Of a stretch of 64,000 nucleotides of DNA, positions 42,414 to 57,386 are shown piece after piece. The stretch lies in the NCBI RefSeq assembly GCF_054482525.1, contig NZ_CM137006.1; one strand, written 5' to 3'. The notes under the pieces are model-generated. The model was given only the letters and a program-made list of their open reading frames with translations. It searched no databases and was not told the DNA's origin. Numbering within the stretch: position 1 is the first letter of the stretch; each line of letters starts with the position of its first letter. A program made the translations under genes and the position numbers.

Positions 42414-43318
<905 letters not shown>

Positions 43319-52090: not shown

Positions 52091-52180
52091 GCGATCAGGA
52101 AGACCCTCGCGGAGAACCTGAAAGCACGACATTGCTCACATTGCTTCCAGTATTACTTAGCCAGCCGGGTGCTGGCTTTT
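52091..52180 (+). ncRNA. ryhB: Iron-responsive small regulatory RNA RyhB
   Basis: The 90 nt sequence gcgatcaggaagaccctcgcggagaacctgaaagcacgacattgctcacattgcttccagtattacttagccagccgggtgctggctttt matches RyhB as I remember it, ending in a terminator hairpin (gccagccgggtgctggc) plus U-run; lies between yhhY and yhhX. Confidence 0.9.
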
Positions 52181-52301
52181 TTTTGATCTTTCGTTTTCAA
52201 TTTATCCACGGGAAGTGCTTGTGTTCGTTATGCGCACTCCAGTAGGAACCACGTCCGCTTTGCGCTAAGGTGTAAATAATCACCTTAAAAAGGACGAAAT
52301 C

Positions 52302-54380: not shown

Positions 54381-55376
54381 ATGAAAAAGAAAAGACCCGT
54401 ACTTCAGGATGTGGCTGACCGTGTAGGCGTGACCAAAATGACGGTCAGCCGCTTTTTGCGTAACCCGGAGCAGGTTTCCGTCGCTCTACGCGGCAAGATT
54501 GCCGCCGCTCTTGATGAACTGGGTTATATTCCCAATCGCGCACCCGATATCCTCTCTAACGCCACCAGCCGGGCGATTGGCGTCCTGTTACCTTCTCTCA
54601 CCAACCAGGTTTTCGCGGAAGTATTACGCGGAATCGAAAGCGTCACCGACGCGCACGGTTATCAGACCATGCTGGCCCACTACGGTTATAAACCGGAAAT
54701 GGAGCAAGAACGCCTCGAATCAATGCTCTCATGGAATATCGACGGACTGATCCTCACCGAACGTACCCACACGCCGCGCACCTTAAAGATGATTGAAGTG
54801 GCGGGGATTCCGGTGGTGGAGTTGATGGACAGCAAGTCGCCGTGCCTCGATATTGCCGTCGGTTTTGATAACTTTGAAGCGGCACGCCAGATGACCACCG
54901 CCATTATTGCTCGCGGGCATCGCCACATTGCCTATCTCGGCGCACGTCTCGACGAACGTACTATCATCAAACAGAAGGGATACGAACAGGCGATGCTGGA
55001 TGCAGGCCTGGTGCCATATAGCGTGATGGTTGAGCAATCTTCTTCTTACTCTTCCGGTATTGAACTGATTCGCCAGGCGAGGCGGGAATATCCGCAGCTG
55101 GATGGCGTGTTCTGTACTAATGATGACCTGGCGGTCGGCGCGGCGTTTGAATGCCAGCGTCTGGGGTTAAAAGTTCCTGACGATATGGCGATTGCCGGTT
55201 TCCATGGTCATGACATTGGTCAGGTGATGGAACCACGGTTGGCGAGCGTACTGACGCCGCGTGAGCGGATGGGCAGTATTGGCGCTGAACGCCTGCTGGC
55301 GCGTATTCGTGGCGAATCTGTGACACCGAAAATGTTAGATTTAGGTTTCACCTTGTCACCGGGCGGATCTATTTAA
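54381..55376 (+). CDS. gntR: LacI-family gluconate repressor GntR
   Basis: 331 aa ORF with N-terminal HTH (VLQDVADRVGVTKMTVSRFL) and periplasmic-binding-like C-terminal domain. Confidence 0.9.
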   Translation: MKKKRPVLQDVADRVGVTKMTVSRFLRNPEQVSVALRGKIAAALDELGYIPNRAPDILSNATSRAIGVLLPSLTNQVFAEVLRGIESVTDAHGYQTMLAHYGYKPEMEQERLESMLSWNIDGLILTERTHTPRTLKMIEVAGIPVVELMDSKSPCLDIAVGFDNFEAARQMTTAIIARGHRHIAYLGARLDERTIIKQKGYEQAMLDAGLVPYSVMVEQSSSYSSGIELIRQARREYPQLDGVFCTNDDLAVGAAFECQRLGLKVPDDMAIAGFHGHDIGQVMEPRLASVLTPRERMGSIGAERLLARIRGESVTPKMLDLGFTLSPGGSI

Positions 55377-55455
55377 GCCCACAAATTTGAAGTAGCTCAC
55401 ACTTATACACTTAAGGCACGGATGGATATTGCTTCTGATATTGTCCGGCTGGACA

Positions 55456-55484
55456 ATGTTACCGATAACAGTTACCCGTAACAT
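55456..55484 (+). promoter_or_regulatory. GntR operator(s) in the gntK promoter
   Basis: aatgttaccgataacagttacccgtaacat contains two overlapping near-palindromes of the ATGTTACCnnTAACAT type, 30-60 bp upstream of gntK. Confidence 0.6.
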
Positions 55485-55513
55485 TTTTATTTCTTGTATT
55501 GTGGGGGCACCAC

Positions 55514-56042
55514 TTTGAGCACGACTAACCATGATCACCACATTTACGTTCTGATGGGCGTCTCAGGCAGCGGCAAATCTGCGGTCGCCAGTGAAGTGGC
55601 GCATCAACTTCATGCCGCGTTTCTTGATGGCGATTTCCTCCATCCGCGCTGCAATATCGAAAAAATGGCGTCTGGCGAACCGCTGAATGACGACGATCGC
55701 AAACCGTGGTTGCAGGCGCTGAACGACGCCGCGTTTGCTATGCAGCGCACTAATAAAGTGTCGCTGATTGTCTGTTCTGCACTGAAAAAACACTATCGCG
55801 ACCTGCTACGCGCGGGTAATCCGAATCTCTCGTTCATCTACCTGAAAGGCGATTTTGATGTGATTGAAAACCGCCTGAAAGCGCGCAAAGGCCATTTCTT
55901 TAAAACCCAAATGTTGGTGACGCAGTTTGAAACGCTGCAGGAGCCGGGTGCGGACGAAACCGATGTACTGGTGGTAGATATCGATCAACCGCTGGAAGGT
56001 GTTGTGGCAAGCACCATTGAGGTTATTAAAAAAGGCAAATAA
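55514..56042 (+). CDS. gntK: Gluconate kinase (thermoresistant) GntK
   Basis: ORF track 55494..56042; likely TTG start giving MSTTNHDHHIYVLMGVSGSGKSAV (175 aa); P-loop GVSGSGKS. Confidence 0.85.
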
Positions 56043-56045
56043 GTA

Positions 56046-57386
56046 GTGACTACATTAACGCTTGTTTTAACAGCAGTAGGGTCTGTTTTACTGCTGCTGT
56101 TTTTAGTCATGAAGGCGCGTATGCACGCTTTCCTGGCTTTGATGGTGGTGTCCATGGGGGCTGGCCTTTTTTCCGGTATGCCGCTCGATAAAATCGCAGC
56201 GACGATGGAAAAAGGGATGGGAGGCACCCTCGGCTTCCTGGCGGTGGTTGTCGCCCTGGGAGCTATGTTTGGCAAGATCTTACATGAAACCGGCGCAGTC
56301 GATCAGATTGCCGTCAAAATGCTCAAATCCTTCGGTCACAGCCGCGCACATTATGCCATCGGCCTTGCGGGGCTGGTTTGTGCACTACCGCTGTTCTTTG
56401 AAGTGGCGATTGTTCTGCTGATTAGCGTTGCTTTCTCAATGGCGCGCCACACCGGTACGAACCTGGTGAAGCTGGTAATCCCATTATTCGCAGGCGTGGC
56501 GGCCGCGGCTGCGTTCCTGGTGCCTGGACCAGCGCCAATGCTGCTGGCATCGCAGATGAATGCCGACTTTGGCTGGATGATCCTGATTGGCCTGTGTGCG
56601 GCAATTCCGGGAATGATTATTGCCGGGCCGCTGTGGGGTAATTTCATCAGCCGCTACGTGGAGTTGCATATTCCTGACGACATCAGCGAACCACATCTCG
56701 GTGAAGGCAAAATGCCGTCCTTCGGATTCAGCCTGTCGCTGATCCTGTTGCCACTGGTGCTGGTGGGGCTGAAAACCATTGCCGCGCGTTTTGTGCCAGA
56801 AGGCTCTACCGCTTACGAATGGTTCGAGTTTATTGGTCATCCGTTTACCGCGATTCTGGTTGCTTGTCTGGTAGCGATTTATGGCCTGGCAATGCGTCAG
56901 GGCATGCCAAAAGACAAAGTGATGGAGATTTGCGGTCACGCGCTGCAACCGGCGGGGATCATTCTGCTGGTGATTGGTGCAGGCGGCGTGTTCAAACAGG
57001 TGCTGGTTGACTCTGGCGTAGGTCCGGCACTGGGCGAAGCGTTAACCGGCATGGGCCTGCCGATTGCCATCACCTGCTTCGTGCTGGCAGCTGCAGTGCG
57101 CATCATTCAGGGTTCTGCCACCGTTGCCTGTTTAACGGCGGTGGGACTGGTGATGCCGGTTATTGAACAACTGAACTATTCCGGAGCGCAAATGGCGGCG
57201 CTGTCGATTTGTATCGCCGGTGGTTCGATTGTTGTCAGCCACGTTAACGACGCCGGTTTCTGGTTGTTCGGTAAATTTACCGGCGCGACTGAAGCCGAAA
57301 CACTGAAAACCTGGACCATGATGGAAACCATCCTCGGCACTGTCGGTGCCATCGTTGGGATGATTGCGTTCCAGCTGTTGAGTTAA
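56046..57386 (+). CDS. gntU: Low-affinity gluconate transporter GntU
   Basis: 446 aa hydrophobic GntP-family ORF with GTG start, immediately after gntK. Confidence 0.85.
   Translation: MTTLTLVLTAVGSVLLLLFLVMKARMHAFLALMVVSMGAGLFSGMPLDKIAATMEKGMGGTLGFLAVVVALGAMFGKILHETGAVDQIAVKMLKSFGHSRAHYAIGLAGLVCALPLFFEVAIVLLISVAFSMARHTGTNLVKLVIPLFAGVAAAAAFLVPGPAPMLLASQMNADFGWMILIGLCAAIPGMIIAGPLWGNFISRYVELHIPDDISEPHLGEGKMPSFGFSLSLILLPLVLVGLKTIAARFVPEGSTAYEWFEFIGHPFTAILVACLVAIYGLAMRQGMPKDKVMEICGHALQPAGIILLVIGAGGVFKQVLVDSGVGPALGEALTGMGLPIAITCFVLAAAVRIIQGSATVACLTAVGLVMPVIEQLNYSGAQMAALSICIAGGSIVVSHVNDAGFWLFGKFTGATEAETLKTWTMMETILGTVGAIVGMIAFQLLS

Follow-up and report, generated by a model that had tools for sequence, protein, structure and literature searches.

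The 29-bp element between gntR and gntK of Escherichia coli is very probably the known double GntR operator of the gntKU promoter

The 138-bp gap between gntR and gntK in an Escherichia coli chromosome holds a 29-bp element, ATGTTACCGATAACAGTTACCCGTAACAT, at positions 55456-55484 of the 64-kb window (the whole stretch of DNA that was analysed). We put the probability that this element is the already described double GntR operator of the gntKU promoter at about 0.92. It consists of two 16-bp palindromes, each matching the GntR operator consensus, whose starts lie 13 bp apart. A double operator at gntK is already known and ordinary, and as a textbook element in the regulation of E. coli gluconate metabolism, at its expected place, it carries little weight as a discovery. 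It does illustrate that a real operator is recognisable from raw sequence, and the element is in practical use as part of gluconate-responsive switches. The signs of selection on both registers, and a shared base that is only ever A or T, also bear on how LacI-family dimers use sites placed 13 bp apart.

Results

Two consensus matches overlap by three bases upstream of gntK

We scanned the window with the consensus ATGTTA-N4-TAACAT (ATGTTANNNNTAACAT), scoring 12 positions and allowing at most two mismatches. Only two matches were found in all 64 kb, and both lie inside 55456-55484. Site 1, at 55456-55471 (no strand assigned), reads ATGTTACCGATAACAG, with a central CG at 55463-55464 and one mismatch in 12. 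Site 2, at 55469-55484 (again no strand assigned), reads CAGTTACCCGTAACAT, with two mismatches in 12. Three base pairs, 55469-55471, are common to both. A CG at the centre is typical of even LacI-family palindromes. Site 2 carries CC there, like the gntT operator and the published consensus, so that GntR would not strictly require CG. A repeat finder described the same architecture in two ways: as a 13-nt direct repeat with a spacing of 13 nt (55458-55470 and 55471-55483), and as an inverted repeat centred on 55470 with 15-nt arms (55455-55469 and 55471-55485) that are 87% complementary. Its distance is 80 bp from the gntR stop codon, which it follows, and 59 bp from the gntK start codon, which the double site precedes.

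The raw number of consensus matches is unremarkable, since 43 of 100 shuffled 64-kb sequences contained at least two anywhere along their length. We report scores from a symmetrised weight matrix trained on four sites of K-12 MG1655, two from gntT and one each from edd and idnD/idnK, with the gntK sites left out. The training sites, ATGTTACCCGTATCAT, ACGTTACCCATAACAA, ATGTTACCGGTAAAAT and ATGTTACGCATAACGT, come from the intergenic regions upstream of these genes; the last is the idnD/idnK site and is of the same type as the gntK sites, and the first is also quoted in the literature as an E. coli GntR operator. Site 1 scored 19.0 bits and site 2 scored 16.6 bits, ranking first and second among the 63,985 positions of the window. 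In 1000 first-order Markov sequences of 64 kb, the mean number of matches per sequence was 0.006 at or above the score of site 1 and 0.052 at the score of site 2, and none of the 1000 contained two matches within 40 bp. Score, pairing and position together, rather than the raw match count, lead us to reject chance occurrence. The initial annotation had described two palindromes resembling GntR operators that overlap upstream of gntK and had staked that description on how well they match the GntR consensus when formally scored; two consensus matches were indeed present, and they were the two best-scoring positions in the window.

The third-best matrix match, CCGGTACCCATAACAT at 43112-43127, scored 13.4 bits, well below both operator sites, and probably reflects chance.

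The element lies between the gluconate repressor gene and gntKU

All three genes around the element are on the + strand and were identified by NCBIfam models. The upstream gene, gntR (54381-55376), encodes a 331-aa gluconate repressor of the LacI/GalR family and matches the equivalog model PRK14987, titled 'gluconate operon transcriptional repressor GntR', with 776 bits against a cut-off of 433. RefSeq annotation of gntR was taken from 100%-identical E. coli matches. Downstream, gntK (55515-56042) encodes a gluconokinase of 175 aa with a TTG start, which matches PRK11545 over residues 1-174 (372 bits, cut-off 265), and gntU (56046-57386) encodes a 446-aa low-affinity gluconate transporter matching PRK10472 (916 bits, cut-off 625); both carry the same identities in RefSeq. 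The segment 54300-56100 was matched at 95-100% identity by 5,424 of 5,426 complete E. coli genomes, where it is annotated as gntR, gntK and gntU.

The repressor contains the Pfam LacI helix-turn-helix domain PF00356 and Peripla_BP_1, a domain of the periplasmic-binding-protein fold, a combination that identifies GntR as a LacI/GalR-family repressor despite its name. We rejected the possibility that the element is the operator of a winged-helix regulator of the GntR/FadR family, because the regulator encoded next to it has the LacI-type helix-turn-helix PF00356. That E. coli GntR and the winged-helix 'GntR family' have a name in common is a historical coincidence. The alignment of GntR with LacI stops at about residue 316 of 360, and GntR itself ends at residue 331, which indicates that it does not have the tetramerisation tail of LacI; from this comparison of protein sequences, GntR would be expected to work as a dimer, as PurR does. 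A search of PDB sequences returned apo or heterologous relatives of GntR, with no GntR-operator complex among the matches.

A mechanical list of open reading frames stretches gntK to an in-frame TTG at 55494, giving 182 aa. The 175-aa product of the TTG at 55515 matches the full gluconokinase model, and the stretch of leader between the two codons is unconserved across genera, which supports 55515 rather than 55494 as the likely start.

Both registers of the element are conserved while the flanks diverge

The 29-mer is identical in K-12 MG1655. Only two bases of the 138-bp intergenic region differ from K-12, at 55419 and 55490, and both lie outside the 29-mer. A slightly longer 35-mer (55452-55486) was matched in 5,351 of the 5,426 complete E. 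coli genomes, and 5,313 of the matching records had at least 99% identity over the aligned stretch.

To look beyond the species, we used a scan for GntK with one genome per species, which yielded 80 loci from about 25 genera, with GntK proteins 89-99% identical; the scan returned Enterobacteriaceae only, and these loci are phylogenetically related, so that counts among them are not counts of independent events. The double site was found upstream of gntK in all 80. A gntR homologue lies just upstream in 79, and the remaining locus offers only 141 bases of flank. When the sequences were anchored on the element, mean information was 1.93 of 2 bits over the 29-mer, compared with 0.89 in the preceding 17-bp stretch and 0.30 in the leader. 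The two sites were equally invariant (1.93 bits for site 1 and 1.88 bits for site 2).

Just two columns of 55456-55484 vary substantially, 55470 and 55484. At the outer one, 55484, Escherichia has T and most of the remaining genera have A, the base found in 70 of the 80 sequences. The inner one, 55470, is the middle base of the three that the sites share; it is position 15 of site 1, where the consensus has A, and position 2 of site 2, where the consensus has T. Of the 80 sequences, 49 have A here and 31 have T; G and C do not occur. On either side of this base, C55469, a consensus base of site 1, and G55471, a consensus base of site 2, are invariant, and the whole stretch 55471-55483 is invariant or nearly so. 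Citrobacter, Kluyvera and Enterobacter each contain both states of 55470, and hence the switch between A and T happened repeatedly. Related as the loci are, we read these patterns as evidence that both overlapping registers are under selection.

Conserved hexamers suggest a weak promoter that site 1 overlaps

The same 80 sequences contain two further conserved blocks on the + strand upstream of gntK. TTGCTT at 55429-55434 is a candidate -35 hexamer of the gntKU promoter (1.95 of 2 bits; three of six bases agree with TTGACA), and GACAAT at 55452-55457 is a candidate -10 hexamer (1.92 bits; four of six agree with the consensus). Exactly 17 bp of freely varying spacer separate them (0.89 bits, as above). 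The sole variable position in GACAAT is its third base, which is C in 74 sequences, G in three and A in three; the third base is the least constrained position of -10 hexamers. A consensus promoter scan returned no + strand promoter at its threshold, and the weakness of the hexamers explains why such a scan missed it. We infer that TTGCTT and GACAAT form a weak sigma-70 promoter, which is placed here purely by phylogenetic footprint.

If so, the gntK start point would fall at about 55464-55465, some 7 nt after the -10 hexamer. Operator site 1 opens with the last two bases of GACAAT. Given this start point, site 1 would span the end of the -10 hexamer and the start point itself, and site 2 would extend from about +5 to +20.

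Farther upstream, TTTGAAGTAGCTCACA at 55386-55401 (22-mer 55383-55404, no strand assigned) has one mismatch in 10 to the CRP-binding consensus TGTGA-N6-TCACA and shows moderate to high conservation from genus to genus. Price et al. (2008, PMC2395238) give this very sequence as the CRP site of K-12 gntKU, with 13.1 bits. With a start at 55464-55465, the CRP site would be centred near -71, a class I position.

The element corresponds to the operator described in K-12

According to Ravcheev et al. (2014, PMC4052901), the GntR sites upstream of E. coli gntKU, which overlap at a distance of about 13 bp, have been "demonstrated" to be functional, with Tsunedomi et al. 2003a as the source. Compared with the K-12 gntKU promoter-operator elements (Izu et al. 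1997; Tsunedomi et al. 2003a, as cited by Ravcheev et al. 2014), all 29 bp are identical. The position between gntR and gntK, the overlap at 13 bp and the upstream CRP site are likewise the same, and nothing differs within the element. The ATGTTACCGATAACAG 16-mer has also been used as a gluconate-responsive recognition site for GntR fusions in synthetic switches (Teixeira et al. 2023, PMC10450161). More generally, the sites match the palindrome, lie in a gluconate-regulon promoter next to the cognate repressor gene, and are conserved amid diverging flanks, as GntR operators are. The initial annotation had placed the palindromes between gntR and gntK and had judged that they fit the known repression of gntKU by GntR. 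The gene models and RefSeq annotation bear out the location, and the account of Tsunedomi et al. (2003) given by Ravcheev et al. (2014), together with retention of the double site in 80 of 80 loci, agrees with the regulatory reading.

The operators of gntT, edd and idnD/idnK in E. coli are of the same ATGTTAC-N2-GTAACAT 16-bp palindrome type and scored 16-20 bits with matrices that left out one promoter at a time. They differ from gntKU in arrangement, being single or far apart. Ravcheev et al. (2014) described a class of LacI-family sites in tandem at 13 bp, upstream of 110 operons, with the same offset of even palindromes and with conservation across orthologous promoters. The starts at 55456 and 55469 and the repeat spacing of 13 place the present element in that class; that paper cites gntKU as its experimentally supported example, and we see no difference between it and the class. 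The overlapping arrangement at 13 bp is conserved in more than half of the GntR-regulated operons in gamma-proteobacteria (Ravcheev et al. 2014, PMC4052901).

There is also a likeness to LacI at the lac operator O1: a LacI-family repressor, a palindrome over the start point (the candidate one, in our case), relief by a sugar ligand, and a CRP site upstream. In contrast to that system, GntR does not have the C-terminal tetramerisation segment, and gntKU has two sites overlapping by 3 bp in place of distant looping operators.

Discussion

Do both sites work?

The alternative that survives best, improbable as we consider it, is that the element has a single working operator and that the other 16-mer is a by-product of symmetry or a decaying duplicate. 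The gap of 16.6 versus 19.0 bits between site 2 and site 1 is in its favour, as is the finding that the site 1 16-mer alone suffices for gluconate-responsive binding in a heterologous system (PMC10450161). Precedent within E. coli could be read the same way: edd and idnD/idnK each have one site above threshold and gntT has two that are 141 bp apart, not 13, which leaves gntKU as the only one of the four promoters with an overlapping pair at 13 bp. A single working site is nevertheless hard to reconcile with the 80 sequences, in which the two registers are equally invariant, including G55471 and the bases 55472-55483 that lie outside site 1, and have been kept while the adjoining leader decayed to 0.30 bits. 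The only base that toggles at the overlap, 55470, does so between the base that satisfies one site and the base that satisfies the other. The literature points in the same direction, in that both overlapping sites are given as functional and the 13-bp arrangement as recurring in GntR regulons (Ravcheev et al. 2014). Two working GntR registers thus remain the reading that we prefer.

Which repressor binds, and at which level?

We regard it as very improbable that the element is chiefly a target of the paralogue IdnR (GntH) instead of GntR. Such a role would be compatible with the idnD/idnK site ATGTTACGCATAACGT being of the same type, with the listing of gntR and idnR as paralogues with shared binding sites (Price 2008, PMC2395238), and with the idn-like central GC found in site 1 of one of the 80 loci. 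On the other hand, the element adjoins gntR in 79 of 80 loci, and gntKU is a textbook GntR target. Tsunedomi and co-workers are said to have defined two GntR-binding elements in the gntKU promoter-operator by mutation and to have found that these are targets of GntH/IdnR as well; GntH, when highly expressed, reportedly also represses gntKU through them. Even so, cross-regulation by IdnR would add to control by GntR and not replace it.

The weakest alternative, which we rejected and consider hardly credible, is that the 31-nt inverted repeat works at the RNA level as a hairpin, a terminator or attenuator of read-through transcripts from gntR: its largely complementary arms and the T-rich run TTTTTATTT that directly follows at 55485-55493 would suit such a role, but the predicted fold is weak (-5.7 kcal/mol, z-score +0.45) and is equalled or bettered by 135 of 200 shuffles, a terminator scan of 55300-55600 found none, Rfam gave no match for the palindrome, the T-run is unconserved outside Escherichia while the palindrome is conserved, and the A at 55484 breaks the outermost pair in most genera.

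A model for repression and relief

With GntR as the cognate repressor, each of the overlapping 16-bp palindromes would serve as the recognition site for one GntR dimer. Repressor bound over the candidate -10 hexamer and start point would keep RNA polymerase from forming, or from leaving, an open complex at gntKp. Binding of gluconate to GntR would release the repressor from the operator, and cAMP-CRP at its site about 71 bp upstream could then activate the intrinsically weak gntKU promoter. In addition, bound GntR probably forms a roadblock for read-through transcription from gntR, a role that we infer because no terminator was found between gntR and gntK.

How the two sites are occupied is a separate question. 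Known structures do not easily accommodate two LacI-type dimers bound at a distance of 13 bp, and simultaneous binding at this offset has already been raised as an open puzzle (Ravcheev et al. 2014, PMC4052901). We lean slightly towards the two registers being alternative positions for one dimer, as opposed to places for two dimers at once. Either register alone would block the promoter, and the pair would raise total occupancy. That two GntR dimers occupy the overlapping sites simultaneously, in a geometry unseen in any LacI-family structure, seems to us rather doubtful, but the rigid spacing of 13 bp, the absence of any change in the C and G beside the shared base, and the restriction of that base to A or T could mean just that.

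Variant loci and other observations

Several observations made along the way concern individual genomes or loci. Of the 5,426 complete E. coli genomes, 5,424 contain the gntR-gntK segment, yet 75 yielded no megablast match to the 35-mer. A substitution interrupting the 28-base seed word is the probable reason, and natural operator variants may thus exist in about 1% of E. coli strains.

In Intestinirhabdus alba, the central CG of site 1 is replaced by GC, giving ATGTTACGCATAAC, in the column of 55463-55464. The double change keeps the symmetry of the site, and the resulting core is the same as that of the E. coli idnD/idnK site.

The Buttiauxella gaviniae locus (L080) appeared to be without an operator in the MAFFT alignment. 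We rejected this absence as an artefact: an insertion of about 120 bp in the leader had misled the alignment, and the double site is present at 1822-1850 of that locus. The extra DNA, which lies between the operator and the gntK start codon (1851-2000 of the locus), folds into a long hairpin with imperfect pairing (-36.7 kcal/mol, z -1.7) and looks similar to small ERIC-type intergenic repeats. Six loci of Klebsiella and Raoultella have an insert of about 50-70 bp in the same interval. The operator itself is intact in all of these loci with inserts.

One record, CACSKA010000004.1, is titled 'Chryseobacterium sp. 18061' and contains a gntR-gntK locus of the Enterobacteriaceae type, with a GntK 91% identical to the E. 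coli protein. Its upstream region is almost the same as that of 'Citrobacter sp. 18056' from the same study, and the assembly is probably mislabelled or contaminated.

Elsewhere in the window, the small RNA RyhB was found at 52120-52184 on the + strand (Rfam RF00057, 83 bits), the only Rfam family to reach its gathering score there; it lies upstream of yhhX, as it does in K-12.
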